DNA of 64,000 bases, taken from IMG/VR virus record IMGVR_UViG_3300035070_003385, positions 96,001 to 160,000 of that record; one strand, 5' to 3'. Source of the DNA: a virus. Positions 7,160-23,152 of the stretch are shown piece by piece (the stretch's first letter is position 1; each line of letters begins with the position of its first letter). The position numbers and the translations under genes are program-made. Under the pieces are notes generated by a model, which saw only the letters and a program-made list of their open reading frames with translations, searched no databases and was not told where the DNA came from.

Positions 7160-7179
7160 GCGCCTAAAGCATGTTATTT

Positions 7180-7187
7180 TATAAATA
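7180..7187 (+). promoter_or_regulatory. T4-type late promoter
   Basis: TATAAATA about 30 bp upstream of ORF 7219. Confidence 0.7.
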
Positions 7188-7218
7188 GTTTAAATTAATC
7201 CTATACAAGAGAATATGT

Positions 7219-8514: not shown

Positions 8515-8517
8515 TAA

Positions 8518-9759
8518 ATGATTCGTTTTAAAAAGTTTTTGTCCGAAGAAAAGAACCTGCACATGACACATGCAGAAGATGCTGTTATTGATGGCGGCAT
8601 TGTTGGTACACGAAACGTAATAAACTATCTTCGTGATATTAGAGATATGCTAGCAGGTAATACTAAAGCACCCGTCAATATTAGCGTCAAGTGGGATGGC
8701 GCACCAGCAGTATTTGCTGGCATCGATCCAAGTGATGGAAAATTCTTTGTAGCTAAAAAAGGTATTTTTAATAAGAACCCAAAGCTATATAAAACACACG
8801 CCGATATTGATGCTGATACCGTGGGTAAGGCAGAGCTAAATGCAAAACTAAAAATTGCGTTAGATGAATTTTCAAAACTAGGAATTAAAGGTGTAGTACA
8901 AGGCGATTTTTTATATGAAAAAAGTGATATTAAAGAAGATACGATTGACGGTGAACCGCATATTACTTTCCATCCTAATACGATTGTTTATGCGATACCT
9001 AAATCATCAAAGCTTGCTAAAACAATACTCAGATCCAAGGTCGGAGTGGTCTGGCATACTGTATACCGAGGATCAAGCCTTGAAAAAATGTCTGCAAATT
9101 TTGGAAAGGAGATTGCAAGCGGCCTTAAAACAGTCCCGTCGGTCTGGTCAGTAGACGCAGTATTCAAAGATCAATCTGGCAATGCAACATTTACCGCAAA
9201 AGAGACTGCTGATATTACAAAAATAATATCTCAAATTGGTTCACTGCTTAAGACAATTCCAAAAAACACATTTGATGCTCTCAAGCCAGGATCTCAGTAT
9301 GATATTAATATGCGCCTCAATACTTACATCAATACAAAAGTTCGCGCCGGCGAAAGAATTGGTAATCCAAAAACTTTTGTTAAAGGCTTTCAGAAATACT
9401 TAAGTGATTATTACGATAAAGAAATTGATAGTAAAAAATCGCCAAAAGGTAAAGCAACCTGGCAAGCTAAAAAAGATAATGCCATGATGTTTTTCAAAAA
9501 AGTCAAACCGCGCGATCTTGAAAATTTATTTACTATGTATAACCTAATCGTTGACGCAAAGCATACAATTATTCGTAAACTTGAAAACGTTGATGGCTTA
9601 AAAACACTACTTAAAACCAATAAAGGCTATGAAGTTACAGGGCAAGAAGGTTTTGTTGCAATTGATCGTTATGGTAAGAATGCGTTAAAACTTGTTGACC
9701 GCTTACAATTTTCAGCTGCAAACTTTTCAGATAAATATATTAAGGGATGGCAAAAGTAA
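8518..9759 (+). CDS. conserved T4-like protein with ligase-type covalent nucleotidyltransferase motifs (DUF6267-like)
   Basis: SVKWDGAP (KxDG), QGDFL, QEGFV, LKLVDR; N-terminus MIRFKKFLSEE. Confidence 0.6.
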   Translation: MIRFKKFLSEEKNLHMTHAEDAVIDGGIVGTRNVINYLRDIRDMLAGNTKAPVNISVKWDGAPAVFAGIDPSDGKFFVAKKGIFNKNPKLYKTHADIDADTVGKAELNAKLKIALDEFSKLGIKGVVQGDFLYEKSDIKEDTIDGEPHITFHPNTIVYAIPKSSKLAKTILRSKVGVVWHTVYRGSSLEKMSANFGKEIASGLKTVPSVWSVDAVFKDQSGNATFTAKETADITKIISQIGSLLKTIPKNTFDALKPGSQYDINMRLNTYINTKVRAGERIGNPKTFVKGFQKYLSDYYDKEIDSKKSPKGKATWQAKKDNAMMFFKKVKPRDLENLFTMYNLIVDAKHTIIRKLENVDGLKTLLKTNKGYEVTGQEGFVAIDRYGKNALKLVDRLQFSAANFSDKYIKGWQK

Positions 9760-10544
9760 TGGCTATTTGGAACAAATTAACTCAAGCGTATTTACAAAAT
9801 AATAAAACTTTATTTGAAGCATTTATTCTAGCAGATAAAGACGGCAATATTATCAACTCATTTGGAGTTGCATCTAATATTCCAATTGCTGCGGGCGACG
9901 TTGACGGTTATGACCATATTAACAAATTTGGCGCAACTGATGGAGACGTTACAGCTGGAACTATCTGGGACGGTAATTCAGCAGCAGTAACATATCCGTA
10001 CCCAGCTGCCGGTGTTGTAGCTGTAACTTCTACTCAAAACAGTGGCGCATCAGTTGAAATCCAAGGTCTTGACGCAGACTACGCACCACAAACAGTAACG
10101 ACTACTATTGGTGGAACAACCACTGAAACATTTTCACGAGTATTTAGAGCTCGTATGGTAGATACTAATAACGATGCAGATGTTACTATCAATCAAGGTG
10201 GCGCTTTAGCTGCAAAAATTCTTGAAGATAAAGGCCAAACTCTTATGGCTGTTTATACTGTGCCGGCAGGTAAAACGGCGTATCTAATCAAAACTCAAAT
10301 GGGTTCTGACAAAGCATCAACCAATGCCTCGTTACAATATACATTGTTTGCAAGACCTTTCGGTGGTACATTTAATGTTAAAGGTATTTCGTACGCTGCC
10401 GGCGGTCAAAATGTTATTGTAGAATATCCAGTACCATTAAAGTTTGAAGAAAAGACAGATATTAAAATTGATGTTGTTGCTGCATCGGGTGGTCAAACTT
10501 GTTCAGCAATGTTTGACCTTATATTGGTAGACAACCCGACATAA
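9759..10544 (+). CDS. probable virion structural protein (beta-rich)
   Basis: Ala/Gly/Thr/Val-rich; in a late transcript; coupled to the previous gene. Confidence 0.5.
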   Translation: MAIWNKLTQAYLQNNKTLFEAFILADKDGNIINSFGVASNIPIAAGDVDGYDHINKFGATDGDVTAGTIWDGNSAAVTYPYPAAGVVAVTSTQNSGASVEIQGLDADYAPQTVTTTIGGTTTETFSRVFRARMVDTNNDADVTINQGGALAAKILEDKGQTLMAVYTVPAGKTAYLIKTQMGSDKASTNASLQYTLFARPFGGTFNVKGISYAAGGQNVIVEYPVPLKFEEKTDIKIDVVAASGGQTCSAMFDLILVDNPT

Positions 10545-10675
10545 TGTCACGGTTGACACTAGTGAATACCGTCTATACCAAATTGGCAACCCAAATTAAG
10601 CCTTATTTTTACATTTCCTTAATAAATATAATTGTAATTCAATAAAAACAATCATATGCGTTAAGGAGATGCAAC

Positions 10676-10963
10676 ATGTCACACACACTTCAATCACAAT
10701 CTTTATATAAATTTATTACGTTATCAATAGTAATTGAAAAAATCAAAGCCTTGTTTGTAGCTTTAGACAAATTTATGTATAAGCGTGCATTAAGACGCCA
10801 ATCATATAGAGAATTATCCTCCCTTTCAAATAGAGAATTAAAAGACATTGGCTTGTGCCGTGGCGACATCATGGCTGTTGTTAACGACCAGTTTTACGGT
10901 GACTCTATCCGCGAAAAAGAAACAACTGCAGAAATAAACAAAAATCTTAAAGGGTGGGCATAA
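10676..10963 (+). CDS. DUF1127 (YjiS-like) small protein
   Basis: RRQSYRELSSLSNRELKDIGLCRGDI signature; AAGGAG RBS. Confidence 0.88.
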   Translation: MSHTLQSQSLYKFITLSIVIEKIKALFVALDKFMYKRALRRQSYRELSSLSNRELKDIGLCRGDIMAVVNDQFYGDSIREKETTAEINKNLKGWA

Positions 10964-10964
10964 T

Positions 10965-11162
10965 ATGTTAGAACGTATATACGCAAGATTAGAAATCATT
11001 GGTTATAGCAGAGCTATTGGTGCAATGATTGGATCACCAGGAATTACCGCAGCGCATATGAAAGGCATGTATGAAGCCCGCGAAGACGCAGTTCAAAGAT
11101 TAGCAAAGTTAAAAGCAATAACTAAAGAAGAAAGCTTTGGAAGAACACTATATAATGCTTAA
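10965..11162 (+). CDS. hypothetical small protein
   Basis: ORF track; directly follows the DUF1127 gene. Confidence 0.65.
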   Translation: MLERIYARLEIIGYSRAIGAMIGSPGITAAHMKGMYEAREDAVQRLAKLKAITKEESFGRTLYNA

Positions 11163-11265
11163 TTTTATATTAAATAGTATTAGCGCATTTAATAACGCAG
11201 TTCTTGCCTCAAAATTGTGTGAACAAGGCTACATAGAAGAAGCAAGAAAAGTAATGCTAAGATAA
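11155..11265 (+). CDS. hypothetical 36-aa protein
   Basis: Hand translation MLNFILNSISAFNNAVLASKLCEQGYIEEARKVMLR; overlaps previous stop. Confidence 0.5.
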   Translation: MLNFILNSISAFNNAVLASKLCEQGYIEEARKVMLR

Positions 11266-11299
11266 CAGTAAATTTAGTATAATTAGGTTTGTAAGTAAA

Positions 11300-11307
11300 T
11301 ATAAATA
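11300..11307 (+). promoter_or_regulatory. T4-type late promoter heading the glycan island
   Basis: TATAAATA. Confidence 0.65.
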
Positions 11308-11310
11308 AAG

Positions 11311-11336
11311 GCAGGGACAAGTTCTCTGCTTTTTTT
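11311..11336 (+). terminator. rho-independent terminator
   Basis: GCAGGGA-CAAGT-TCTCTGC then TTTTTTT. Confidence 0.7.
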
Positions 11337-11356
11337 GTTAACAGGGATAATATACT

Positions 11357-11893
11357 ATGAAAGAATGGTTTGAAGGCAAGACCGTAGCGGTTGTAGGAAA
11401 TGCTGCATCTATCATACAACAGAAATATGGCGATGAAATAGATTCTGCGGATGTGGTTGTAAGAATCAATCGTGGTGGGTATCGGTTTCCTCAGTACAAA
11501 AAGCAGATGGGAACGCGTATTGATGTATGGTGTATGCAGAACATCCGACAGAACAAATCTCATTTTAACACTGCTCATAATAAAGGTGTTCTTAAAATGC
11601 AAATGGATACCGAAAGTGTATCTCCTAAATTTATAGAAATGGCCGATGTAGTGTTTTCTGAAGAGGATAGAATAGCTCTTGACAGCAACCTAACAAAGAA
11701 ATCCTCAACCGGGCTCAGAGTCCTCTATTACATTTCTAAACAGGATCCAAAGAGCGTACGCGTATATGGTTTTGATTGGAAAGAAACGTACTCTTGGCAC
11801 GAGAGAAGAAAGTGTGTTGCTCACGTTTTTAGCGAAGAAAAAGAATACTGCTTTAATAATTTTTTTAATAAACAATTCAAATTAAAGATTTAA
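11357..11893 (+). CDS. GT29 (sialyltransferase-like) glycosyltransferase, copy 1
   Basis: Sialylmotif-L-like VAVVGNA..EIDSADVVVRIN; motif-S-like SSTGL..VRVYGFDW. Confidence 0.75.
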   Translation: MKEWFEGKTVAVVGNAASIIQQKYGDEIDSADVVVRINRGGYRFPQYKKQMGTRIDVWCMQNIRQNKSHFNTAHNKGVLKMQMDTESVSPKFIEMADVVFSEEDRIALDSNLTKKSSTGLRVLYYISKQDPKSVRVYGFDWKETYSWHERRKCVAHVFSEEKEYCFNNFFNKQFKLKI

Positions 11894-12949
11894 ATGAAGT
11901 TTTTTGTAGCATCCTCTTCTAAGGCGACCGCTTCTTTTGCGAGTAGAGCACAGTGCCCAAGAATAAAGTATTTTTCTAGGAATAGAGTCATTCCAAGACG
12001 CGTTGTCCCTGAGAACTACATGCATAGCTTTAACAATGCTGATGTTTTAATTTTAAATGGAACTTGGGGTTCAGAAATTAGAAAGAACGCATATCTAGAA
12101 GGATACTTAAACGGAGATTATACAGACGGTTACATACCAGATATAGAATACGAATGTGATAGTATACCACGTTTAAATAGATCAGCAACATTAGATTATA
12201 TTAACGTTGAGCTCTTGAGGATGGCAAATGAACAAAATAAACCCGTAGTCGTATTTGAAAGCTCTACAGTGTCAAGAGCAGAAGCAAACTATGAAACGAC
12301 GTTTAACATTAAGGATTACGCGAGAGTAGGATTATATAGCTGGATGCACGGTGATGGAAAGTGGCTTCATCCTGATGATTTCGAATCTCTTCAGATAGTA
12401 AAAGCCCCTCGTTTGTATAATCATATTTGGAAACACGATAAAGATAACGGTGCAATATATATCTTTACCGGTTTTGAAATGGATCCAACGGGCACAAAAC
12501 ACCCAAAGGATTTTTTATTAGAAACAGTAGAAACAATAAGAAACAAAACGAACCGAAGAATATGCATAAAGGTTCATCCTATGTCTAAATTACAAAATTA
12601 CGTTAAAGAACTATTAATTGAGTATAAAAACATTCATATCATTGGTAAAAACATTACAATGCAAAACCTTTATCATGATATGTATTGTGCAGTGATTGAT
12701 AATTCAACGAGTATATTTGAATTGATAGACGCAGGAATACCGACCTTTTGTTCAAAAATGAACTTTGGTTCAGAACTATTGAATACGAACATAGAAAATA
12801 TATGTGATCCGTATCTTGCTCCAAAAAAAGAAGTCTTGGACTGGACTGTAAGAATGTCTTGCACAGAACTTCATAAAGACATCATACTGTCAGATGATAT
12901 AGTAACATACGTAGAAAAGTTAGTAAGGAGACACTGGGATGGATTTTAA
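11894..12949 (+). CDS. KpsC/KpsS-like GT-B glycosyltransferase, copy 1
   Basis: IKVHP and CAVIDNSTSIFELIDAGIPTF C-terminal motifs. Confidence 0.55.
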   Translation: MKFFVASSSKATASFASRAQCPRIKYFSRNRVIPRRVVPENYMHSFNNADVLILNGTWGSEIRKNAYLEGYLNGDYTDGYIPDIEYECDSIPRLNRSATLDYINVELLRMANEQNKPVVVFESSTVSRAEANYETTFNIKDYARVGLYSWMHGDGKWLHPDDFESLQIVKAPRLYNHIWKHDKDNGAIYIFTGFEMDPTGTKHPKDFLLETVETIRNKTNRRICIKVHPMSKLQNYVKELLIEYKNIHIIGKNITMQNLYHDMYCAVIDNSTSIFELIDAGIPTFCSKMNFGSELLNTNIENICDPYLAPKKEVLDWTVRMSCTELHKDIILSDDIVTYVEKLVRRHWDGF

Positions 12950-13502
12950 AGAGAATCAGCACGGAGGTGGAACAAACATTGACATAGAAGCGTTAAAATA
13001 TGCTATGAAAAAATGGAATGTAAATTCTATGATTGACATTGGTTGCGGCACGGGCGACCAAGTGTTCGAAGGAATAAAACTTGGTATAGATTCTTACGGT
13101 GTAGATGGTACACAATCAATACCAAATACCTCTAATTTTCAAAGAGTAGATTATCGTGTTGGAGCTTCAACGTTTGACAGAGAATTTGATTTAGGCTGGA
13201 GCGTGGAGTTTGTTGAACATATTGAAGAAGAATGCATACCTATTTTTATGAAAGATTTTCAGAAATGCAAGAGAGTTATATTAACAGCGGCTCCTCCTTT
13301 TTGGGGTGGTAAGAACCACGTAAACGAACAATCAGAAATATATTGGATTGATGTGTTCCAAAAATATGGTTTTAAAATAAATATTGAAGAGTCTTTGCTT
13401 TTAAGAAAGGCGTCTATAACGCTAATGAATAATAAAATAAGACCTCCACGACAACAATTTGTGTCAATAAGAGGTCTCGTATTTGAAATAAATAATAAAT
13501 GA
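12939..13502 (+). CDS. class I SAM-dependent methyltransferase
   Basis: MIDIGCGTG glycine loop; SVEFVEHI. Confidence 0.85.
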   Translation: MDFKENQHGGGTNIDIEALKYAMKKWNVNSMIDIGCGTGDQVFEGIKLGIDSYGVDGTQSIPNTSNFQRVDYRVGASTFDREFDLGWSVEFVEHIEEECIPIFMKDFQKCKRVILTAAPPFWGGKNHVNEQSEIYWIDVFQKYGFKINIEESLLLRKASITLMNNKIRPPRQQFVSIRGLVFEINNK

Positions 13503-14404
13503 AAAGTACGATATTTTATAATACCTTAAAATCAAATAGAGTTGATAATAGGTTTAACGCGATTGCTAACGCATTTCCTAACTGTAACATTGTAAGAGGT
13601 TACGAAGGTGTTCAGGATTGCGATATTGCAATTATACAAGGGTGGTCAAAGAAAAAAGGTAAAGGCGCACACAATCTTTTACGAAAGCTAGTTATCGAAA
13701 CCCAGTTAGAAAAAAACAAAAACATTCTCACAATAGATGGAAATATATTTAATTATTTGTCAAAAGGCATATATTTTAGATATAGTTTAAATGGGATTTA
13801 TGCAAACACTGGATATTATTTTGATAATACAATAGATCCTAATAGGTGGAAAAAAATAAAAAGCACAATAGGATTTGATTTAAAAAGTTGGAGACAAGAA
13901 GGCGAACATATTCTTATATTATTACAAAAAGATTCTGGGTGGACAATGGAAGAAAAAAGTAACATATCATGGTGTTCTGAAACTATAAATAAAATAAGAA
14001 AATATACGGATAGGCCAATTGTAATAAGAATGCATCCGTCTGATGTAAAACACAAAGAAAATTATTTAATGATGGCGCGGAATAAAAAAGTAACTTTATC
14101 TGAAAATAAAAACATTATGCAAGATTTAAAAAATGCATGGTGTTCAATATCACACAACAGCTCTCCAGGCGCTGTGAGTGTATTAGAAGGTATACCAGTT
14201 TTTATAACTGATAAAGATTGGCAGAAAAGCCCTGCAGGACTTGTTGGTAATTATGACATGTCTAAAATAGAAAATCCCGTTTTACCAAATAGAGAATCTT
14301 GGGTACAAAAACTTGCTATGTCTCATTTTAGTATTGAAGATATTAAAAAAGGTCTATTATGGGAAAGCATAAACGAATATTTTTATAGGTGTAAACAAAA
14401 ATGA
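13499..14404 (+). CDS. KpsC/KpsS-like GT-B glycosyltransferase, copy 2
   Basis: IVIRMHP and CSISHNSSPGAVSVLEGIPVF. Confidence 0.6.
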   Translation: MKSTIFYNTLKSNRVDNRFNAIANAFPNCNIVRGYEGVQDCDIAIIQGWSKKKGKGAHNLLRKLVIETQLEKNKNILTIDGNIFNYLSKGIYFRYSLNGIYANTGYYFDNTIDPNRWKKIKSTIGFDLKSWRQEGEHILILLQKDSGWTMEEKSNISWCSETINKIRKYTDRPIVIRMHPSDVKHKENYLMMARNKKVTLSENKNIMQDLKNAWCSISHNSSPGAVSVLEGIPVFITDKDWQKSPAGLVGNYDMSKIENPVLPNRESWVQKLAMSHFSIEDIKKGLLWESINEYFYRCKQK

Positions 14405-15192
14405 AAACAATTAGCGCAGTTACGTGTTTCAATCTTCAAGGATGGAGAGAAACTGGTGGTCTTTTAGTACAAGGGTTTATAAAAAATTGGCCTGATGACG
14501 TGTCACTAACTGTTTATGTTGACAATCCAATTCCAAAAAAAGATTTAATAAGAGATCCAAGAGTTTCGTATAAAATATTAAATTATAAAGATCTTATTTC
14601 CTTTAAGGATAGACATAAAAACAATCCTGAAGCAAATGGATTGGGAAAATATGCTTCGAAAGGAGCTTCAAATTATCGCTATAACGCTGTGCGATTTAGT
14701 CATAAAGTATTTGCTCTTTTTCAATTTTTACAAGAAAATAAAACTGATATTTTAATATGGTTAGATGGAGATAGCAGAACACATTCACCAGTTAAAAGAA
14801 GTGACATATCAAATTGGTGCCCAGAAGGAAAGTTTGCAGGATATCTTGCCCGCCCTTGGATGTATACTGAAACCGGATTTCACATCTTTAATATGAATCA
14901 TGACATTGCTAAAGACTTTTTAAATGCATGGAAACAATATTATTTAGATGACAGTATTTTTAAATTAGAGTTTTGGACTGATTGTCATACATATGACGCG
15001 GCAATGCAAAACTTTAATCAAATACATTGGCATAACCTAAGCCCGCAAATTAAAAACAACCATCCTTTCATCAACGGGCCTCTTGGAGAATTTATGGATC
15101 ATATGAAAGGTCCAAGAAAACAAAAAGGAACTAGTCATAAAAAAGATCTTGTTGTTCAAAGAAAAACTTCGTATTGGAATAACGTAAAATGA
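14401..15192 (+). CDS. GT-A fold glycosyltransferase
   Basis: RFSHKVFA, IWLDGDS (DxD), ETGF, DHMKG motifs. Confidence 0.75.
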   Translation: MKTISAVTCFNLQGWRETGGLLVQGFIKNWPDDVSLTVYVDNPIPKKDLIRDPRVSYKILNYKDLISFKDRHKNNPEANGLGKYASKGASNYRYNAVRFSHKVFALFQFLQENKTDILIWLDGDSRTHSPVKRSDISNWCPEGKFAGYLARPWMYTETGFHIFNMNHDIAKDFLNAWKQYYLDDSIFKLEFWTDCHTYDAAMQNFNQIHWHNLSPQIKNNHPFINGPLGEFMDHMKGPRKQKGTSHKKDLVVQRKTSYWNNVK

Positions 15193-16073
15193 TATATTCA
15201 TTTCTGACAGGCAAAAAAGAACAGGACATTTACGTAAAGTATTTTGGGGCTTCGGTTGGCGCAAAAACAATTTGGACAAAACATTTTTTAGCGAAGTCAA
15301 AAGGTAACAGTCAGGTACCGCCTAGTATTAGACCACGCCCTTTGCCAAAAGAAGTAAACGCAATTATATTTGCGGGCATGCTTCGTGGAAACGCACATTT
15401 ATTTCAATTGGCGAAGCAACATAATATTGATTTTTATTACATTGACCATGCATATTTCAATCGAGGATATAAAAATCCATATTGGATGCGAATTACAAAA
15501 AATGGCTTTGTACAAAATGCAATCCTTTCTGAAATAGATCACGACAGGTATAATTCTAACTTTAATGTTAATTTTGAAAACTACAATTTTAAAAATAAGC
15601 AAAATATTGTTATACTACCGCCCAGTGATGTTGTGTCACAGGTTTTTGATAAAGGAAAATGGGAAAAAAATGTAATTACAACATTAAAAAAATACACAGA
15701 TCGCCCTATTGTTATAAGGAGAAAGTCCTCTCCTTGGGTTCTTGATAAATTATCATATGACTCAGTTAGACCAAAACATCAAGTTAAAAATGATACATCT
15801 TTTGAAGAAGAATTAAAAAACGCATATTGTGTTATTGCGTTTAATAGTTCAGGAGCACTAGACGCATTAAGACTAGGAATTCCAGTTATATGCGATAAAA
15901 TGTGTCCAGCATATCCATTATCTCATTCTATTTCCCAAATTGAAAACTTACAAGAAAAAGATAGAAAACAATTATTCGGTAGTTTGGCTAATGGGCAATA
16001 TACACTGGCAGAAGCTAGAAATGTCAAAACATTTAATTTTATTAATAGAAATAGACAATGGATCGGAAATTAA
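15189..16073 (+). CDS. KpsC/KpsS-like GT-B glycosyltransferase, copy 3
   Basis: FYYIDHAYF, IVIRRK, CVIAFNSSGALDALRLGIPVI. Confidence 0.55.
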   Translation: MIYSFLTGKKEQDIYVKYFGASVGAKTIWTKHFLAKSKGNSQVPPSIRPRPLPKEVNAIIFAGMLRGNAHLFQLAKQHNIDFYYIDHAYFNRGYKNPYWMRITKNGFVQNAILSEIDHDRYNSNFNVNFENYNFKNKQNIVILPPSDVVSQVFDKGKWEKNVITTLKKYTDRPIVIRRKSSPWVLDKLSYDSVRPKHQVKNDTSFEEELKNAYCVIAFNSSGALDALRLGIPVICDKMCPAYPLSHSISQIENLQEKDRKQLFGSLANGQYTLAEARNVKTFNFINRNRQWIGN

Positions 16074-16075
16074 CA

Positions 16076-17236
16076 ATGAAATATAAATTAGCAAGTGATA
16101 CCTGGGGTGATGAAGAAGTTAACGCTATTCATCGAGTAATCTCAAGTGGTAAGTACACGATGGGTGAAGAAGTAAAGAAATACGAAAACCAATTTGCCGA
16201 ATTTTTTGGAAGCAAGCATGCTGTTATGACAAATAGCGGAAGTAGTGCTAATCTTATTACTATATCAGCTCTCGCATTAAATCCAAAATATAAAAATAAA
16301 GGGAATATTATTGTACCGGCCGTAAGCTGGAGCACAACTTATTTTCCAATACACCAATTAGGTTATACTATTCGATTTGTTGATGTTGACCCATATACGT
16401 TTAACATAGATCCTAGTAAAGTAGAGGCAGCTATTGATGAAAACACGGCGGCTGTTTTTGTTGTAAACCTTTTAGGTAATCCAGCAGAACTCAACAAAAT
16501 TAAAGAGATATGTGATAAGCGAAACATTACCTTATTAGAAGATAATTGCGAAAGCTTAGGTGCATTAGAATACAATAAGCACTGCGGATCTGTTGGAGAA
16601 ATGGGTACCTTTAGTTTTTTCTTTAGCCACCACATGCAAACTATGGAAGGCGGAATGGTTCTTACTAATGACGATACCACCTATGAATATTTAAAGAGCC
16701 TACGAGCTCACGGGTGGATAAGAGATAGCACTTCAGATGATCCTTTGTTTGCAAAATCCGGTGATCCATTTGAAGACAGTTTCAAGTTTATATTACCCGG
16801 GTATTGTGTAAGACCACTCGAAATGAGTGGTGCTATTGGCCAAGAGCAATTAAAAAAATGGCCGCAGATGATGATAGATCGAAGAAAGAATGCTGAAATC
16901 GCAAAAAAGGTTTTTGCAGATGTTCCTAATATAAGATTACAAGATGAACACGAAAAAAGCAGTTGGTTTGGTTTTGGACTAGTTCTTGAAGGTGATTTAG
17001 CCGGAAAAAGAAAAATGGTAATTGAAGAGCTCACGAAAAACGGTGTTGAAACACGCCCTATCGTAGCAGGAAACTTTATGCGCAATCCTGTAATAGACCG
17101 ATTAAATTGGGATAGTGTTGGAGATTTTACTGGAACTGATAAATTACATTTTGATGGTTTTTTTATTGGTAACGATTGTGTAGATCTTTCTGATAATATA
17201 CAAATGGCAGCAAATGTAATAAGGAATATAAAATGA
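16076..17236 (+). CDS. colD: GDP-4-keto-6-deoxy-D-mannose 3-dehydratase (ColD-like, PLP-dependent DegT family)
   Basis: FFSHHMQTMEGG with His at the Schiff-base Lys position; NSGSSANL, VSWSTT, EDNCES, PGYCVRPLEM, ETRPIVAGNF. Confidence 0.85.
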   Translation: MKYKLASDTWGDEEVNAIHRVISSGKYTMGEEVKKYENQFAEFFGSKHAVMTNSGSSANLITISALALNPKYKNKGNIIVPAVSWSTTYFPIHQLGYTIRFVDVDPYTFNIDPSKVEAAIDENTAAVFVVNLLGNPAELNKIKEICDKRNITLLEDNCESLGALEYNKHCGSVGEMGTFSFFFSHHMQTMEGGMVLTNDDTTYEYLKSLRAHGWIRDSTSDDPLFAKSGDPFEDSFKFILPGYCVRPLEMSGAIGQEQLKKWPQMMIDRRKNAEIAKKVFADVPNIRLQDEHEKSSWFGFGLVLEGDLAGKRKMVIEELTKNGVETRPIVAGNFMRNPVIDRLNWDSVGDFTGTDKLHFDGFFIGNDCVDLSDNIQMAANVIRNIK

Positions 17237-18234
17237 AAACTGCTTTAATTACTGGTTTCCCAGGACAAGACGCATGCTATCTTGCCGACCTTCTTTTAGG
17301 AAAAGGTTATAATGTATATGGATTAGTAAAAAGATATACAAGCCCAAATTGGTCAAACATCGAATATTTAAATTTATTTGAAAAAGGTCTTAAAACTGTT
17401 ATTGGGGATGTCACCGACCTGTGTAGTATCATGGATGTAATGGAAATAGCAAAACCTGATGAATTTTATAATCTTGCAGCTCAAAGCTTTGTTGGTGGTT
17501 CATGGAGATTACCTTATGTAACTACTCATGTTGATGCTATCGGACCACTTAATTGTCTTGAAGCTATACGACGAATCAAACCTAACACTAAATTTTATCA
17601 GGCTGGCACAAGTGAAATGTTTGGTAACAGCAACATAGACGGAAGACAAACAGAAAATACACCGTTTGAACCTGCGAGCCCGTATGGAATAGCAAAATTG
17701 TATGGTTACCATATAACAAAAAATTACCGTGAAAGTTATGACGCGTTTGCGTGTACTGGTATACTTTTTAATCATGAATCTTCGATACGCGGTATTGAAT
17801 TTGTTTCAAGAAAAATCACAGACGGCGTAGCAAAAATATCATTAGGTAAATCTGATAAAATTGTATTAGGAAATCTTGATGCCGAAAGAGACTGGGGCCA
17901 TGCTAAAGATTATGTAAAAGCCCAATGGCTTATGCTTCAAGAAGACAAACCTGAAGATTTTATTATTGCAACTGGTATTAAACACAGTGTGCGTGATCTA
18001 TGTAAAATAGCTTTTGAAACTGTAGGAATATCAAATTGGGAACAATATGTCAAATCCGATGAAGAATTTCAAAGGCCAAACGAATTACACAGTTTACACG
18101 CTGATTCAAATAAAGCAAAGAATACATTAAATTGGGAACCGGAATATACATTTGAAAAAATGATATCTGAAATGGTTGAAGATGATATATCTAGACATAA
18201 AATTTTAAATGTTGGCGGTACTTTTAAATTATGA
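17233..18234 (+). CDS. gmd: GDP-mannose 4,6-dehydratase
   Basis: ITGFPGQD, YNLAAQSFV, GTSEMFG, SPYGIAKLY (YxxxK), FNHES, RDWGHAKDYV. Confidence 0.92.
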   Translation: MKTALITGFPGQDACYLADLLLGKGYNVYGLVKRYTSPNWSNIEYLNLFEKGLKTVIGDVTDLCSIMDVMEIAKPDEFYNLAAQSFVGGSWRLPYVTTHVDAIGPLNCLEAIRRIKPNTKFYQAGTSEMFGNSNIDGRQTENTPFEPASPYGIAKLYGYHITKNYRESYDAFACTGILFNHESSIRGIEFVSRKITDGVAKISLGKSDKIVLGNLDAERDWGHAKDYVKAQWLMLQEDKPEDFIIATGIKHSVRDLCKIAFETVGISNWEQYVKSDEEFQRPNELHSLHADSNKAKNTLNWEPEYTFEKMISEMVEDDISRHKILNVGGTFKL

Positions 18235-18770
18235 AAATAGTAATCACTGGCCATACGAGTGGTCTTGGAAAAACATTGTATGAAACCTTTTCAAAAAATC
18301 ATGAAGTCGTAGGATTGAGTCGAGCAACTGGTAATGATTTAAATGATGGTGTTAATTCTTTTTTAATAAATGATTTTGATTTATATATTAATAATGCGCA
18401 TTGTAAATACTTTCAAACAGATCTTTTATATGAATTGTTTAAAAAAAATAAATATAGAGAGTGCACAATACTTAATATTGGAAGTGTAAGTGCTGACGGT
18501 AATAAAGACACAGTTAACGAATATGCCATTTATAAATCCTCTCTTGAAAAGGCATGTTCGCAGCTGCAGCTTATTGACACTGATTGCAAAATAATTCATA
18601 TGAAGCTAGGAAGAATGAATACTCCTATGACTGAGCACAGAAAAGAATATCCTAGGATGGGAACCGATTACATAACTAATATTATCGAATGGATTGTGAA
18701 TCAGCCAAAAGAAATAATAATAAAAAATTTGACATTAGATATAATGCACAGTAGAAGGAAACTTGTATAA
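18231..18770 (+). CDS. short-chain dehydrogenase/reductase (compact SDR)
   Basis: ITGHTSGLG, NNAH, NIGS, YAIYK (YxxxK). Confidence 0.75.
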   Translation: MKIVITGHTSGLGKTLYETFSKNHEVVGLSRATGNDLNDGVNSFLINDFDLYINNAHCKYFQTDLLYELFKKNKYRECTILNIGSVSADGNKDTVNEYAIYKSSLEKACSQLQLIDTDCKIIHMKLGRMNTPMTEHRKEYPRMGTDYITNIIEWIVNQPKEIIIKNLTLDIMHSRRKLV

Positions 18771-19447
18771 TGATACCAATTTTTATGGGATACGATAAAA
18801 GAGAAGCAACTGCGTATCATGTTTGTGCTAACTCTATTATTCGTCATGCAACATCCCCAATAAGTTTAAATCCTTTATCACTTAATCTCTTAAATGGTTA
18901 CGAAGAAAAACATTCTGATGGCAGTAATCATTTTATATATAGTCGATTTCTTATTCCACATTTAATGGAATATAAAGGCTGGGCAATTTTTATTGACGGG
19001 GATATGATATTACGTGATGACATATCAAAGCTTTGGGAAATGCGAGACGAATCAAAAGCAGTCATGGTAGTAAAGCATGACTATAAAACTAAAACAGCTA
19101 AAAAATATTTAGGATCAAAAAACGAAGATTACCCTCGAAAAAATTGGTCAAGTGTAATTTTATGGAACTGTGAACATCCTGAAAATAGAATTGTTACTAC
19201 AGATTTTGTTTCAAATGCAACTGGCGCACAAGTTCACAGATTTACATGGTTAGAAGATAATTTAATTGGTGAATTGCCTATTGAATGGAATTGGCTGCCA
19301 GACGAATTTGGTCCAAATAAAAATGCTAAACTATTACATTACACTTTAGGTACTCCGTGTTTTCACGACTTTGCAACAACGTCTATGGCAGATGAATGGC
19401 ACCGCGAAAGAATATATATGGATTACAGTCAACAATACGGATTATGA
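18770..19447 (+). CDS. GT-A glycosyltransferase (CDI-like)
   Basis: IFMGYDKRE, FIYSRFLIP, IFIDGDM (DxD), YPRKNWSSV, LHYTLGTP. Confidence 0.75.
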   Translation: MIPIFMGYDKREATAYHVCANSIIRHATSPISLNPLSLNLLNGYEEKHSDGSNHFIYSRFLIPHLMEYKGWAIFIDGDMILRDDISKLWEMRDESKAVMVVKHDYKTKTAKKYLGSKNEDYPRKNWSSVILWNCEHPENRIVTTDFVSNATGAQVHRFTWLEDNLIGELPIEWNWLPDEFGPNKNAKLLHYTLGTPCFHDFATTSMADEWHRERIYMDYSQQYGL

Positions 19448-19453
19448 TATATT

Positions 19454-19963
19454 ATGAAAGAAGTATTTGAAGGTAAAACAGTTTCTGTTGTTGGCAATGC
19501 AAGAAGTTTGTTTAATAAAAAATACGGAAATGAAATAGATTCTGCAGATGTAGTTTGTAGGATTAAAAGAGGGTTTTTTCTACTCAAACCATCTGATATT
19601 ATTTCACATGGTGCAAAAACGAATGTTTGGTTTTTAAACTGGTTTAAAACAATGAATCCGAACAAAGTAACCAATAAAAAATGTGATAATATTATTGAAA
19701 TTTTACATCATCCTGAAATAAATAAAGAGTGGTTAGTAAAAGATTTAGGCCACCACCGCCCGTCAACTGGGTTAAGAATATTACATTTAATATCTTTATA
19801 TAACCCAAAGACTGTAAATGTTTACGGTTTTGATTGGAAAGAAACCCCATCGTTTCATGATAAAAAAATGATTGATGAAAGACATAATTTTGCCTTAGAA
19901 AAAGATTATTGTAATAGGCGGTTTTTTGAAAAACAAAAAGAGGTTTTTAAATTAAGAAAATGA
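19454..19963 (+). CDS. GT29-like glycosyltransferase, copy 2
   Basis: VSVVGNA..EIDSADVVCRI; PSTGL..VNVYGFDW. Confidence 0.72.
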   Translation: MKEVFEGKTVSVVGNARSLFNKKYGNEIDSADVVCRIKRGFFLLKPSDIISHGAKTNVWFLNWFKTMNPNKVTNKKCDNIIEILHHPEINKEWLVKDLGHHRPSTGLRILHLISLYNPKTVNVYGFDWKETPSFHDKKMIDERHNFALEKDYCNRRFFEKQKEVFKLRK

Positions 19964-20520
19964 AAGAATGGTTTGAAGAAAAAACTGTTGCTGTAGTTGG
20001 AAACTCTATGGGACTGTTCAGTAAAAAATATGGAAACGAAATTGATTCGCACGACGTTGTAGTACGCTTAAATAAGGCGGCTATGTTATACACGAGAATG
20101 AATGTTCCGCTGAGTCATGGAAGTAAAAGTGACATTTGGGTGTTTTGGAATACTTCCGAATATAAGTTATTCTTTGAAAAAATACCAAAACATGTTAAAA
20201 AAATGCATGCGGGTCATCAGGCCAGGACTCCTAGTAATCTTAGCAAAGTAGATTTTGTGTACCCAGATTCTTTATATAAACACTTGAAGTTAAAATCAGG
20301 TAAACATAAAAATCCTACAACAGGTTTAATTACATTAGATTATATATCAACGTGCAATCCAAAAAGTGTTACCGTTTATGGGTTTGATTGGAAAGAAACC
20401 GCAACGTTTACAGATCCAGAAAGGAAAAGAGAACGTGGATGTCCGCATGATTATCCTGTAGAAAAGGAATATTGTATGACAACATTTTTTTCGAAGAATA
20501 ACTTTACTTTAAAAATCTAA
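19960..20520 (+). CDS. GT29-like glycosyltransferase, copy 3
   Basis: VAVVGNS..EIDSHDVVVRLN; PTTGL..VTVYGFDW. Confidence 0.75.
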   Translation: MKEWFEEKTVAVVGNSMGLFSKKYGNEIDSHDVVVRLNKAAMLYTRMNVPLSHGSKSDIWVFWNTSEYKLFFEKIPKHVKKMHAGHQARTPSNLSKVDFVYPDSLYKHLKLKSGKHKNPTTGLITLDYISTCNPKSVTVYGFDWKETATFTDPERKRERGCPHDYPVEKEYCMTTFFSKNNFTLKI

Positions 20521-20532
20521 TATCATCAATAT

Positions 20533-20540
20533 TATAAATA
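20533..20540 (+). promoter_or_regulatory. T4-type late promoter
   Basis: TATAAATA upstream of ORF 20572. Confidence 0.7.
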
Positions 20541-20571
20541 AAATATAATTCATATGACCTAGGGGTATTTC

Positions 20572-22860
20572 ATGGTTGAGAAGAAAAAAAATAAAAAAGA
20601 TCTTAAAAAAATAAAAGATCATAATCCTAGTGATTATATTGAAACAAAGCCAACTATGTCCGAGGCTTTGAAGAAAACTGTGGTTATAACTTTTGGTAGG
20701 TTTAACCCTATTACAGTTGGACACGAAAAATTAATAAACAAAGTAATAACAGAAGCTGTAAAGCGCAAGGCTGATGCTGCAGTTTATATGTCACATTCTC
20801 AAGATTCAAAAAAGAACCCTATGAGTTATAATCAAAAAATATCTCTTGGGCAAAAAGCTTTTGGCGGAATTGTAAAAAAATCACCAGCAAAAACAATCAT
20901 TGAAGTAGCTAAAGAATTATCTAAAAAATATAATAATTTTGTACTTGTTGTTGGGTCTGATAGAGTTAAAGAATTTGAAGTTCTTTTGAAAAAATATAAT
21001 GAATTAGATTATACTTTTGAAAATATCGAAATAGTTTCTGCTGGTGAAAGAGATCCTGATTCTGACGGCGTGTCCGGAATGTCAGCATCAAAGATGCGAC
21101 AGTCAGCTGCAAAAGGAAATATTGTTTCTTTTAAACAGGGGTTGCCTAAAAAGTTAAAAATATCCGCAGTGTCTATAATGAACATGGTTCGTAAAGGTAT
21201 GAATATTACAGAAGAACTTGAAGAGCAAAATCTTTCAGAAAGAGAACCGCTTTCAATTCAACAAAGACGTAAAAAAGCTTTGGTAATGAGAAAGTATAAA
21301 ACAAAAATAAAAATGGCTCGTGAAAGATCCAAAAGAAAAATGGCCCCAAAAGAAAAGTTATTAAAAAGATCTAGAAAAGCAGCTCTTAATTTTATGAAAG
21401 ATAGATTATCTAAAAATAAAAAGTATTCTCAAATGTCTACCGCAGAAAAAATTACTTTAGATAGAAGATTGCAAAAAATTCCTGGCAAAACAATAGATCG
21501 TATTGCGTCTCGTCTTTTACCTAAAGTTAGAGCCGCCGAAAAAGAACGTCTTGCTGGTGTTTTAAATCCAAAAAAGAATGAAGATGTTTATGATATAAAC
21601 AATATGTTTGAACTATTTTTAGAATCAAAATCAATAAAACCTCAAGATCCTGATGTAAAAGATATGCCTGGTTCACAGCCAAAGGGTTATTACAAAGGTG
21701 TTGAAAAAGATAAAAAAGATGATAGAGCTAGACATTTTGCCAAGTACGGTAAAATGGACGATGATAATCCTGATGCATATAAACCAGCACCTGGTGATAA
21801 AGAAGCTAAAACAAAACCGTCTGTTCATACAAAAAAATTTAAAGATATGTTTGGCGAAGCTATACACGCTGATATACCAATTCGCAAAAGACCGCATATG
21901 GCTTTAGAAAAAAACGGCTCTGTTAAATTTGACAAGCGGTTTAAAATATTCAAGCCAAAAGAAGACACTGTAAGTGAAACCTACGAGGACTTTGGCGAAG
22001 ATATATCAAAACTTATTTCTGGTATGAGTGATTTTATTATGTCTGAAGAATTTGATGTTTTAATGGAATCAAATCCAAAAGCAGCACTTAAGAAAAAAGC
22101 AGAAAAAACCGGAATATCATATGGTATATTAAAAACAGTTTTTGATAGGGGGGTCGCTGCCTGGAGAACAGGTCATCGCCCAGGAACAAACCCAACACAA
22201 TGGGGGTTTGCCAGAGTTAATTCGTTTGCTACCAAAGGTAAAGGAACCTGGGGAAAAGCAGACAAAGACTTAGCTGACAAAGTTAGAAAGGAACAGTTTG
22301 ATTTGGCAACAGGACAAGAGCAACTCTTAAACCTTGATGAACAAATTATGCTAAATAAAATTCTTGAAAAAATACATAATCATATTTTAAATGGCGAAAA
22401 ATTAAAAGACGTAATTGAAGAAATTGAAACTCTTGCGAATATTGGAATTCCAGGGCGCCGTCTAGAAACAGAATATTTTAAAAAATATAATAACGAGCAT
22501 GCAGATCTTACACAAAATGAAGACACTGAAAGTTTATTAAAAAGAAATCAACTTCTTAAAAAATATGGATATAAAGTTGAGGCAAAAGACGAAAAAGATT
22601 CTCCATCGAAAAGAGAATACGGTACTGATGCTTTAACAAAAAAATATAAAGAAGATACTCCAGGGCAAGAAATTGAAGAAGCAGCATTAAATGCAAATAT
22701 ATACCGTGGTGATGTAATAAAGTTTATGCATACTTATGTGACTGGCGAAAAAGATGAATTAGAAGGAACCCTTGTAGGAACCGATTCAGAAACAGGGCGC
22801 GCAAAAATAAGAACAGGGGACGGTAAATTGTATATCGTAAAACACGATGAAATCATTTAA
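20572..22860 (+). CDS. multidomain protein: N-terminal cytidylyltransferase-like (HxGH) domain plus several small basic modules
   Basis: TFGRFNPITVGHEKL, VVGSDR, MSASKMR; later modules e.g. ALKKKAEKTGISYGILKTVFDRGVAAW. Confidence 0.7.
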   Translation: MVEKKKNKKDLKKIKDHNPSDYIETKPTMSEALKKTVVITFGRFNPITVGHEKLINKVITEAVKRKADAAVYMSHSQDSKKNPMSYNQKISLGQKAFGGIVKKSPAKTIIEVAKELSKKYNNFVLVVGSDRVKEFEVLLKKYNELDYTFENIEIVSAGERDPDSDGVSGMSASKMRQSAAKGNIVSFKQGLPKKLKISAVSIMNMVRKGMNITEELEEQNLSEREPLSIQQRRKKALVMRKYKTKIKMARERSKRKMAPKEKLLKRSRKAALNFMKDRLSKNKKYSQMSTAEKITLDRRLQKIPGKTIDRIASRLLPKVRAAEKERLAGVLNPKKNEDVYDINNMFELFLESKSIKPQDPDVKDMPGSQPKGYYKGVEKDKKDDRARHFAKYGKMDDDNPDAYKPAPGDKEAKTKPSVHTKKFKDMFGEAIHADIPIRKRPHMALEKNGSVKFDKRFKIFKPKEDTVSETYEDFGEDISKLISGMSDFIMSEEFDVLMESNPKAALKKKAEKTGISYGILKTVFDRGVAAWRTGHRPGTNPTQWGFARVNSFATKGKGTWGKADKDLADKVRKEQFDLATGQEQLLNLDEQIMLNKILEKIHNHILNGEKLKDVIEEIETLANIGIPGRRLETEYFKKYNNEHADLTQNEDTESLLKRNQLLKKYGYKVEAKDEKDSPSKREYGTDALTKKYKEDTPGQEIEEAALNANIYRGDVIKFMHTYVTGEKDELEGTLVGTDSETGRAKIRTGDGKLYIVKHDEII

Positions 22861-23152
22861 ACAACATATAAAAAATACTCCAAATTTAAAAGAGCAACAT
22901 TCAAACTGTGGTACTCAACAGTGTTGTGGTAAATGCAGCACTGCAGTTACAGAAGGCTCAGAAACTTGGGAAGCTGGTTATAAGCGTAGAGTAGTCAAAA
23001 CTACAAAACCAGAGCACAAAGAAAAAGGTATGAATTGGAGAATTAAAGGTAAAGACCGTCCTGAAATTTCCATTAAATTGTATAAAGAAAAACCTTCCCA
23101 GGAAGAATTCAACAAACAAATGAAACGTGTTGCAGGACACGAGTTCGGATGA
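22847..23152 (+). CDS. hypothetical, capsid-targeting-like N-terminus
   Basis: MKSFKQHIKNTPNLKE; Cys cluster CGTQQCCGKC. Confidence 0.65.
   Translation: MKSFKQHIKNTPNLKEQHSNCGTQQCCGKCSTAVTEGSETWEAGYKRRVVKTTKPEHKEKGMNWRIKGKDRPEISIKLYKEKPSQEEFNKQMKRVAGHEFG

Follow-up and report, generated by a model that had tools for sequence, protein, structure and literature searches.

A putative glycan-assembly island with a hairpin-overlapped late promoter in an uncultured marine T4-like phage

The window analysed here is a 64,000-nucleotide stretch (positions 96,001 to 160,000) of IMG/VR record IMGVR_UViG_3300035070_003385, a 183-kb, 91% complete record of an uncultured marine T4-like phage. Within it, twelve plus-strand open reading frames form an island at 11357-20520 that, as judged from its genes, should make a rare deoxy-sugar and build an acidic glycan chain of Kdo type inside the infected cell. 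Neighbouring genes overlap by 1-16 nt or are separated by at most 6 nt, in agreement with an earlier sequence-only reading of this DNA that described twelve tightly coupled genes. The features are as follows.

11300..11307, + strand: T4-type late promoter box TATAAATA at the operon head, 49 nt 5' of the g1 ATG
11307..11337, + strand: intrinsic-terminator-like hairpin with U-run, overlapping the 3' end of the promoter box
11357..11893, + strand: g1, minimal GT29-like transferase, 178 aa; PF00777 42.3 bits
11894..12949, + strand: g2, distant paralogue of g4 and g6, 351 aa; HP motif; in the island's variable stretch
12939..13502, + strand: g3, probable SAM-dependent methyltransferase, weakly supported, 187 aa; DIGCGTG motif
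13499..14404, + strand: g4, GT-B protein with a retaining beta-Kdo-transferase fold, 301 aa; HP motif; model pLDDT 89.6
14401..15192, + strand: g5, retaining-type GT-A transferase, 263 aa; invariant WLDGD; model pLDDT 95.3
15189..16073, + strand: g6, g4 paralogue, 294 aa; in all core-island relatives; HP motif replaced
16058..17236, + strand: g7, ColD (GDP-4-keto-6-deoxy-D-mannose 3-dehydratase); full-length match to 2gms
17233..18234, + strand: g8, GDP-mannose 4,6-dehydratase (Gmd); PF16363 368.6 bits, full length
18231..18770, + strand: g9, compact classical SDR, 179 aa; TGHTSGLG, NNAH, GSVS and YAIYK motifs
18770..19447, + strand: g10, GT8-like GT-A transferase, 225 aa; FIDGD motif; PF01501 36.4 bits; phrog_28018
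19454..19963, + strand: g11, minimal GT29-like transferase, 169 aa; PF00777 39.5 bits
19960..20520, + strand: g12, minimal GT29-like transferase, 186 aa; PF00777 48.4 bits
20533..20540, + strand: next late promoter box TATAAATA, serving the NMNAT-like/DUF5824 gene (20572-22860) and marking the 3' operon border

The box TATAAATA occurs 42 times in the genome, always co-oriented with genes (42/42), and 24 of the 42 are intergenic, though intergenic DNA makes up only 10% of the genome; one lies 31 nt upstream of gp23. By this distribution TATAAATA behaves as a late promoter in the phage genome. A NATAAATA box at the island-head position is kept in nine loci, and the box upstream of the NMNAT-like/DUF5824 gene is retained in most relatives. 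Late promoters had been proposed at 11300 and 20533, with no early promoter in the island; TATAAATA is present at both positions, and sigma-70-like matches within the island number 73 compared with 72.7 in shuffles.

The hairpin that overlaps the head promoter is the top terminator-like site within 7000-24000. RNA reading through it folds at -13.9 kcal/mol (z -4.1), whereas RNA starting at 11313-11315 folds at only -2 to -2.8. We propose that the hairpin halts transcripts arriving from upstream genes, while late-promoter RNA would read on because it starts inside the hairpin's 5' arm, such that the island would constitute a single transcription unit, presumably expressed late. Nine loci (eight distinct sequences) share this layout but differ in the stem, and a compensatory pair in the hairpin (C11312T/G11328A) was seen in one run; within the genome, only two of the 42 boxes have an overlapping hairpin. 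Near-identical short pieces of the island are found in two marine RNA libraries, where DNA carry-over is possible and which hold no timing information.

Genes g7 to g9 encode a nucleotide-sugar route. The g7 product is 56% identical to E. coli ColD (E 4e-115) over its full length, and its SHH segment retains the active-site His that stands in for the usual Lys; g8 just misses the TIGR01472 cut-off (371.6 bits against 415), and g9, with weak SDR matches and a size of 179-181 aa across relatives, is a candidate for the pathway 4-ketoreductase, its substrate being suggested by context. Gmd and ColD would convert GDP-mannose to GDP-4-keto-3,6-dideoxymannose, which the compact SDR probably reduces to GDP-3,6-dideoxyhexose. 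Adjacent Gmd and ColD are also found in the GDP-L-colitose pathway of E. coli O55 and Yersinia (Gmd, ColD, ColC), but the phage has the 179-aa classical SDR in place of ColC, an extended SDR epimerase/reductase of ~300 aa. Since a ColC-type epimerase/reductase is lacking, the product need not be colitose, and may be a D-series 3,6-dideoxyhexose. The phage also encodes KdsA, which scores above NCBIfam equivalog cut-offs, and a KdsB-like enzyme whose best matches are all KdsB, both 19 kb upstream of the island and outside the window; together these would boost the supply of CMP-Kdo. NeuB and SIS have no match in the 183-kb record (91% complete).

The three GT29-like proteins (g1, g11 and g12) are 39-43% identical to one another and all exceed the Pfam PF00777 cut-off of 23 bits. 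The L, S and H-x4-E (VS) motifs are invariant in the family, a family profile matches solely GT29 sialyltransferases in the PDB (E 1e-7), and the L and S motifs of g12 align to pig ST3Gal-I. The phage proteins thus share the Pfam threshold and the sialylmotifs with eukaryotic GT29 sialyltransferases (ST3Gal-I, PDB 2wnb), but they are prokaryotic/viral, are 169-186 aa long compared with roughly 270 aa for the GT29 catalytic domain, and are without a signal anchor or the disulfide pattern. CMP-Kdo is the likelier donor, as the phage has Kdo synthesis only and no sialic-acid pathway. The most widely conserved gene at the site is g12, present in 27 IMG/VR loci and in 754 representative clusters among 1.84 billion proteins. 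Natural MTase+GT29 and Capsule_synth+GT29 fusions occur in bacteria, the latter apparently linking the two transferase families beyond this phage too.

The other family (g2, g4 and g6) is recognised through the g4 model: there is no Pfam match, and no sequence-level relationship to Capsule_synth by Pfam, PDB profile or hhalign. Foldseek searches with the g4 model return KpsC, KrkA and WbbB as best matches (E 3e-7 to 4e-5), and VIA-align gives Z scores of 14.5, 13.6, 13.2 and 12.1 compared with 10.8 for the next fold, such that KpsC/KpsS (GT107), WbbB (GT99) and KrkA are the best structural matches over nearly the whole of g4 (Z 12-14.5). They share two Rossmann-like domains, an N-S-S/T motif and solubility, g4 and g2 have the R-x-H-P motif in the corresponding position, and the phage encodes enzymes for Kdo supply; the phage proteins differ in being single-domain and ~300 aa. 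The g6 product is 30% identical to g4 and has RRKSSP and similar sequences where RxHP is expected, and the residue at the position that could carry the nucleophilic Asp varies in the family alignment, so that the donor, and even catalysis, is uncertain for some copies.

Of the GT-A proteins, g5 has 360 homologues, none with a Pfam domain, and its model matches GT6/GT8 enzymes, PBCV-1 A64R and glycogenin (Z 13.7-14.2), while g10 passes the Pfam GT8 threshold and aligns to the WbbM GT8 domain. The matches of g3 are all sub-threshold (TehB and Methyltransf_11/25, E 0.01-0.1). None of the twelve proteins has a membrane segment (no window of 19 residues exceeds a Kyte-Doolittle hydropathy of 1.15), which supports all twelve products being soluble cytoplasmic enzymes. 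Together, eight transferases (three GT29-like, three KpsC/WbbB-fold and two retaining GT-A) would assemble a heteroglycan with donors and step order as predicted here, the GT29-like and KpsC/WbbB-fold enzymes most likely using CMP-Kdo or a similar CMP-ulosonate and the methyltransferase trimming the product in this phage.

These assignments largely bear out the sequence-only reading. Its three GT29-like genes, two GT-A genes, ColD, Gmd and SDR were all recovered through profile matches, motifs or folds, and its three KpsC/S-like genes through the g4 model, the identity of g6 to g4 and the distant relationship of g2; the HMM and structure searches that it called for gave PF00777 matches for g1, g11 and g12 and GT folds for the g4 and g5 models. 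The ulosonate and dideoxyhexose chemistry that it envisaged is strengthened by the enzymes beyond the window, and for its SAM methyltransferase the motif stands without an above-threshold match.

The island site is a swappable sugar-gene cassette in ~25 related contigs, with sugar cassettes exchanged at the same site among relatives and g3 found in only three of them (L014, L016 and L017). A comparable module is present in the cultured Caulobacter phage CcrColossus, where gp126-gp131, flanked by a tail protein gene and the lysis cassette, include a sialyltransferase-like protein, two g4-family proteins (gp127, hhalign probability 97.6%; gp128 region, tblastn E 1e-13), a GT-A and a GT9; the sialyltransferase-like protein matches the GT29-like family weakly (probability 60%). 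This module also lies in a late region and its function, as in the marine phage, is predicted from its genes, but CcrColossus belongs to an unrelated siphovirus lineage and is without Gmd/ColD. In a spring-water podovirus, genes for a TibC-like transferase, terminase and portal are accompanied by g5-like and g4-like genes.

The best explanation, held tentatively, is that the glycan is made late and attached to a phage-made structure, with a virion protein ranked first as acceptor because of the predicted late expression, the absence of membrane, initiation or export functions, the late genes on both flanks, and the similar module that an unrelated phage carries between its tail and lysis genes. 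Neither a PGT (PF02397, PF00953) nor a true ABC ATPase is present in the 183-kb record (91% complete), as had been noted for export and initiating functions. Virion glycosylation is plausible. In mycobacteriophages (Freeman et al. 2023, as cited in PMC12619734 and PMC12801897) and in chlorovirus/mimivirus capsid and fibril glycosylation, virus-encoded soluble transferases likewise act in the cytoplasm with no host export route, and the g5 fold ties with the capsid-glycosylating PBCV-1 A64R. The mycobacteriophage genes, however, reportedly belong to the structural operon, and their glycans were measured on subunits of the capsid and tail tube, neither of which holds here. The earlier step from late to virion was too direct, as TATAAATA also drives genes outside the structural set, the NMNAT-like gene directly downstream among them, and the island sits among RNR, helicase, nucleotide-metabolism and accessory genes, ~44 kb from gp23. 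The collagen-like fibre (51723) suggested as acceptor lends no support, as it consists of GxQ triplets (GIQ 70 times) and is poor in Ser/Thr, and the phage has no Ser/Thr-packed fibre; co-occurrence of fibre and island is uninformative because the fibre occurs in all relatives with enough coverage, one of which has a swapped cassette.

Host LPS and DNA had been set aside as acceptors, which the comparisons do not sustain. The enzymes could instead rewrite the host envelope: lipid-linked acceptors of the host (lipid A-core, an undecaprenyl-linked O-chain, or a KpsS/KpsC-type lyso-phosphatidylglycerol/poly-Kdo anchor) would be modified on the cytoplasmic side of the inner membrane, the product would be exported by the host, and the changed surface would block superinfection or keep progeny off debris. 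The closest folds, KpsC, KpsS and WbbB, are soluble or peripheral enzymes whose lipid-linked acceptors are exported through separate ABC systems, bacterial mini-GT29 homologues have GT4 genes as neighbours or occur as fusions with Capsule_synth, and the cassettes are swapped like O-antigen and capsule loci; moreover, variable-region GT/LPS genes of pelagimyophages and cyanomyophages are usually read as modifying the host O-chain or surface (PMC7029224; PMC12801897). We nevertheless consider this less likely than a virion acceptor, as an insulated late promoter gives a lytic T4-like phage scant time to have the product exported before the cell lyses, and the 183-kb record encodes neither an initiating transferase nor a flippase, polymerase or ABC exporter.

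Less probable still is another acceptor or none, such as a soluble or released glycoconjugate, a non-virion phage glycoprotein, or the draining of nucleotide sugars from the host. The sequence itself does not point to an acceptor, and the g5 fold ties with self-glycosylating, protein-glycosylating and glycan-extending enzymes alike, but twelve conserved, translationally coupled genes and swappable pathways argue for a selected, defined product over a sink. We give least credence to DNA hypermodification, in which the island would extend a sugar on hydroxymethylcytosine into a DNA oligosaccharide that blocks restriction. Phage transferases are published that install Kdo and short glycans (mono- to trisaccharides) on the cytosine of hmC DNA (bioRxiv 10.1101/2023.12.21.572611), and diversifying cassettes would suit an arms race against restriction systems. 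A basic pI (9.2-9.7) is seen in most of the island's transferases, but this is general in the AT-rich genome; eight transferases far exceed known DNA glycans, the operon is headed by a late promoter, and the twelve proteins all lack a C-terminal clamp-binding tail and show no resemblance to BGT/AGT-type DNA transferases in fold searches.

Sugar-gene islands in marine T4-like phages are already published, including those of pelagimyophages (PMC7029224) and of the cyanomyoviruses P-SSM2, S-SCSM1 and S-SCSM2R (PMC12801897), which belong to the same phage group and habitat; S-SCSM2R is reported to carry both kdsA and kdsB (PMC12801897). In common with the island, these clusters have several transferases and nucleotide-sugar enzymes in a non-syntenic region, with function predicted from the genes. 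This enzyme set and promoter-terminator layout differ: three mini-GT29-like and three KpsC-fold proteins with a Gmd-ColD-SDR route are undescribed in PMC7029224 and PMC12801897, and the island has a defined late promoter with overlapping terminator and lies outside the tail-fibre 'host recognition cluster'. Pelagibacter phage Mosig carries an analogous block with a g5-like gene.

The twelve island genes probably direct the late, cytoplasmic assembly of a glycan containing Kdo-type and 3,6-dideoxyhexose sugars. The source record is 182.7 kb long and 91% complete. For its major capsid protein, identity is 65% with Sinorhizobium phage phiM12 and ~62% with Methylophilales phage Melnitz and with marine cyanomyoviruses. 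Metagenomes of seawater, estuaries and other marine settings (15 studies) contain near-identical DNA; none of 50,697 phage records does. The island encodes three GT29-like transferases (g1, g11 and g12), three KpsC-fold proteins (g2, g4 and g6), two GT-A enzymes (g5 and g10), a candidate methyltransferase (g3), ColD (g7), Gmd (g8) and a compact SDR (g9). A PHROGs search yields a name for g10 only, and none of the 12 proteins contains a segment hydrophobic enough to span a membrane. The main features of this phage are listed here, L035 being the same phage upstream of the window.

11357-20520, + strand: twelve island ORFs, g1-g12, with neighbours overlapping by 1-16 nt or separated by gaps of at most 6 nt
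20572-22860: 762-aa protein with an NMN-adenylyltransferase-like N-terminal domain and DUF5824; late box kept in most relatives
51723-58613: collagen-like protein, 1724 aa, PF01391, with GxQ triplets (GIQ 70 times) and few Ser/Thr
L035:10013-10792 and L035:10931-11611 (genome 88013-89611): KdsA and KdsB-like genes, 19 kb upstream of the island and outside the window

The three GT29-like proteins score 42.3, 39.5 and 48.4 bits (g1, g11 and g12) against PF00777, whose gathering threshold is 23, and share 39–43% pairwise identity. Sialylmotif L (VVGN...G..ID..D.V.R.N) and sialylmotif S (P.TG...V.VYGF) are invariant or nearly so across 20 aligned family members and align to ST3Gal-I residues 97-254, bearing out the GT29-like assignment made for these genes in the sequence-only reading. 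H163 and E168 are invariant in the same alignment (HDYPVE), and the spacing of this H-x4-E pattern suggests that it corresponds to the GT29 VS motif with its catalytic His. A profile of the family matches only GT29 sialyltransferases in the PDB (ST3Gal-I, E 1e-7). A full GT29 catalytic domain has ~270 residues; g1, g11 and g12 are 169–186 aa long, with a Pfam match spanning at most profile positions 56-162 of 272, and as judged from their sequences are a minimal core, short of the full domain. The family comprises 754 representative clusters among 1.84 billion proteins, and its bacterial members are found in Rhodobacterales, Rhizobiales, Pseudovibrio, Melainabacteria and others; in Celeribacter and Paracoccus the gene comes after a GT4 gene. 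Two natural fusions occur in bacteria:

L047:6129-8678: Capsule_synth (KpsC/S) joined to a GT29-like domain, in a gammaproteobacterial MAG
L042:7296-8531: methyltransferase joined to a GT29-like domain, in Pseudovibrio

The first of these links both transferase families of the island to a single pathway.

Sequence searches against Pfam, NCBIfam and the PDB return nothing of use for g2, g4, g5 and g6, whose assignment depended on folds. There are no sequence-level matches to g4 in Pfam, NCBIfam or a PDB profile search, PF05159 (Capsule_synth) is not detected in g2, g4 or g6 at E values up to 10 (the PDB profile search is also negative), and hhalign of the g4 family with a bacterial Capsule_synth protein gives a probability of 0.6%, which is not significant. 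The predicted model of g4 (pLDDT 89.6) has KpsC, WbbB and KrkA as its top Foldseek matches (E from 3e-7), and the same three proteins supply the top four VIA-align matches, with Z scores of 14.5, 13.6, 13.2 and 12.1 and the next fold at 10.8. Two independent aligners agree, and the assignment of the modelled g4 to the retaining beta-Kdo transferase fold (GT107/GT99) is sound. Since g6 shares 30% identity with g4, and g2 is distantly related to both, these proteins are placed in the same predicted fold through homology; the earlier description of three KpsC/S-like genes thus holds at the level of fold but not as a PF05159 sequence match. An R-x-H-P sequence, the putative counterpart of the HP motif of these enzymes, is present throughout the g4 and g2 families and replaced in all g6 orthologues. 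At the candidate nucleophile site (QxxxKD) g4 reads LLQKD, and in the alignments its orthologues have S, N, T or H, those of g6 have D, N or H, and D is kept only in the g2 orthologues. Given the variable Asp position and the loss of HP in g6, Kdo-type catalysis by g2, g4 and g6 is a candidate activity.

The g5 family includes at least 360 proteins, none with a Pfam domain, and WLDGD is invariant among them. Its predicted model (pLDDT 95.3) has a retaining-type GT-A fold, with tied matches to GT6/GT8 enzymes, glycogenin and chlorovirus A64R, a capsid-glycosylating enzyme. Structure prediction, proposed by the sequence-only reading as a check for GT folds, accordingly returns one in both cases, KpsC/WbbB/KrkA-like for g4 and retaining GT-A for g5. 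The g10 product is GT8-like with a FIDGD motif. As for g3, the SAM methyltransferase named earlier, its DIGCGTG motif agrees with that name, but all methyltransferase family matches stay sub-threshold.

The ColD and Gmd assignments are secure. The g7 protein matches E. coli ColD (2gms) over its full length (residues 7-387, E 4e-115), and its SHH segment aligns with SHH of 2gms and with SNH of the H188N mutant entry; g7 thus retains, as the first His of that segment, the active-site residue that in ColD replaces the usual PLP-binding Lys. The g8 protein scores 368.6 bits against PF16363 (profile positions 1-332 of 332) and 371.6 bits against TIGR01472, under the equivalog cut-off of 415. The g9 product is a 179-aa classical SDR with TGHTSGLG, NNAH, GSVS and YAIYK motifs, its length kept in relatives. 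Together g7–g9 would make up an almost complete pathway for a rare 3,6-dideoxy sugar; a ColC-type epimerase/reductase is absent, g9 being the only further reductase in the island, and naming the product colitose is thus an assumption.

Upstream, the KdsA gene (Kdo-8-phosphate synthase) scores above two NCBIfam equivalog cut-offs, and the best matches of the KdsB-like cytidylyltransferase (CMP-Kdo synthetase-like) are all KdsB, below their cut-offs. KdsC and KdsD are not found in the phage genome, and neither NeuB nor the SIS domain (KdsD) has a match in the 91% of it that is represented; on brief inspection no clear late box is seen directly before KdsA or KdsB. Given the presence of KdsA and a KdsB-like gene and the absence of NeuB, Kdo is the only ulosonic acid with phage-supported synthesis, and we therefore infer CMP-Kdo to be the most likely donor for the six transferases of CMP-ulosonate type, the GT29-like and KpsC-fold enzymes.

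The sequence-only reading placed a late promoter at the island head, and a TATAAATA box is present there at 11300. The genome has 42 copies of this box, all oriented like the genes around them; 24 are intergenic although intergenic DNA makes up 10% of the genome, 25 are no more than 60 nt from a start codon, and one is 31 nt ahead of gp23. In all these respects it behaves as a T4-type late promoter. The island-head box overlaps a hairpin at 11307-11333 followed by a U-run (site 11300-11337), the strongest terminator-like structure of the surrounding 17 kb. Read-through RNA folds here at -13.9 kcal/mol (z -4.1), whereas RNA starting 5–7 nt past the box reaches no more than -2 to -2.8 kcal/mol, and the terminator should thus halt transcripts from upstream genes and spare late ones. 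A TTGACA-type site lies at 10553, ahead of the upstream genes; only transcripts arriving from these genes would form the hairpin, and late transcripts would read on into the island.

Such overlap is rare, being seen at 2 of the 42 boxes (the other is at genome 43023, - strand). The order of a NATAAATA box, a GC-rich hairpin and a U-run before the g1 orthologue recurs at nine loci (eight distinct sequences) with differing stems, and one estuary metagenome variant has the compensatory pair C11312T/G11328A at hairpin-pairing positions. Pieces of the island are present in two marine metatranscriptome runs as short assembled contigs, which carry no start, strand, level or timing information and may reflect DNA carry-over.

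Relatives of g12 are found at 27 IMG/VR loci; ~25 of these share the site, with additional genes of the island or of its flanks. It is bordered by DUF6267/DUF1127 genes and by the 762-aa NMNAT-like/DUF5824 gene. The stable core consists of g1 and g5–g12, with g2, g3 and g4 variable. Other cassettes occupy the site in further relatives:

L025: UDP-galactopyranose mutase, two methyltransferases and two GT25 enzymes
L020: pyruvyl-transferase-like protein and methyltransferase
L024: GFO/IDH/MocA oxidoreductase and DegT aminotransferase replacing Gmd and ColD
L016: ATP-type PEP carboxykinase (L016:4055-5338) and class-I-aldolase-like gene (L016:5345-6139) inserted between g6 and ColD

With different sugar cassettes at one position, the site behaves like a serotype locus. 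The genes inserted in L016, a feature of some relatives, may supply PEP for ulosonate synthesis.

Related modules are present in other phages. In the cultured Caulobacter phage CcrColossus one is flanked by a 5-kb gene for a tail protein and by the endolysin-holin-spanin genes:

L089:5432-9985: CcrColossus gp126-gp131, comprising sialyltransferase-like, two g4-family, GT-A and GT9 genes

Here gp127 belongs to the g4 family (hhalign probability 97.6%), as does the gp128 region (tblastn E 1e-13); gp126 matches the GT29-like profile weakly (probability 60%), and hhalign finds no relation between gp129 and the g5 family. In a 43-kb spring-water podovirus g5-like and g4-like genes adjoin a TibC-like transferase, terminase and portal. 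Pelagibacter phage Mosig has a g5-like gene in a block of methyltransferases, transferases and a sulfotransferase that adjoins its RNR genes, and probably has a g4-family gene too.

Sugar-gene islands of marine T4-like phages are already known, and phage kdsA and kdsB have been reported together (PMC12801897). What this island adds is its particular combination of enzymes, a ColD route paired with a compact SDR, conservation of the promoter-terminator overlap, a fusion in bacteria that joins both transferase families, and a lead to cultured phages in which the target can be measured.

As to that target, the sequence-only reading had the glycan built on a virion structure, which goes beyond the evidence; we tentatively favour a particle component as acceptor, at somewhat under even confidence. 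Expression that is predicted to be late and insulated points this way, as do the lateness of the flanking genes, the related modules in or beside structural genes of two unrelated phages, and the restriction of the island to soluble enzymes. Unlike a bacterial O-antigen or capsule locus, with its initiating phosphoglycosyl transferase, flippase or ABC exporter, and polymerase, the phage genome has no initiating phosphoglycosyl transferase or ABC exporter (PF02397 and PF00953 have no match in it, and PF00005 has sub-threshold P-loop matches only, with no true ABC ATPase), and the island proteins lack membrane segments, in line with the earlier remark that no export or initiation gene was recognised. 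Against a particle target, late boxes also serve non-structural genes, the one at the NMNAT-like/DUF5824 gene indicating that metabolic genes are among them, and no acceptor can be named. The island lies ~44 kb from gp23 in non-structural surroundings (RNR, helicase, RNase H and PhoH genes), whereas mycobacteriophage virion glycosylation genes are within the structural operon, and in those phages the glycan is shown on capsid or tail subunits. KpsC/WbbB-type fold relatives act on lipid-linked acceptors and have separate exporters, which fits modification of the host envelope, also the published default reading for such genes (PMC7029224; PMC12801897). Late timing in a lytic phage is its weak point, and we regard it as unlikely, if a serious alternative to the particle.

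Known phage transferases attach Kdo and glycans of up to three sugars to cytosine (bioRxiv 10.1101/2023.12.21.572611), but DNA is an improbable target for an island with eight transferases, late control, no BGT-like folds and no clamp-binding tail in any of its 12 proteins. Some further target is a minor prospect, though a better one than DNA. Extending the particle reading, it is possible, if doubtful, that a late module of mini-GT29-like, KpsC-fold and GT-A enzymes, common to marine T4-like phages and to unrelated ones (the Caulobacter phiCbK group), uses phage CMP-Kdo and swappable nucleotide-sugar cassettes to cover some component of the particle in an acidic glycan that differs between strains. 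Phages of Gram-negative bacteria would then have a widespread form of virion glycosylation that is so far undescribed.

Abundant ocean phages commonly carry sugar-gene islands, whose purpose has, to our knowledge, been guessed at and never measured. The present island is a compact, well-defined case, with a late promoter, an insulating terminator and a predicted, nearly complete 3,6-dideoxy-sugar route, and it brings together two transferase families about which little is known: a GT29-like core of 180 aa and, within the Kdo-transferase fold, a branch rich in phage members. The two are fused in some bacteria. Because related modules occur in the cultured phages CcrColossus and Mosig, the choice between particle, host surface and DNA can be settled biochemically. 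If the particle is the target, its glycan coat would matter for phage-host recognition, grazing and particle stability at sea.

The collagen fibre at 51723, suggested earlier as the acceptor, has been dropped as evidence: it consists of GxQ triplets and has few Ser/Thr, and it is present whatever the cassette. Collagen-like genes are found in 4 of the 5 larger related records searched (both complete ones among them), one with a swapped sugar cassette, so that the proposed test of island-collagen co-occurrence is uninformative. The gene is followed directly by a subtilase (Peptidase_S8) gene, in a region of 45–47% GC compared with ~35% elsewhere. A genome-wide search found no mucin-like fibre. 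The most Ser/Thr/Pro-rich stretch of the genome is in a 192-aa protein just after KdsB (L035:12998-13576, genome 90998-91576), which has a TATAAATA box 33 nt upstream and no family match; that this late protein is the glycan acceptor is conceivable, as pure speculation. A further GT-B gene (Glycos_transf_1) lies at 44363-45319 of the window, 24 kb downstream of the island, with TATAAATA near its 3' end (45271).
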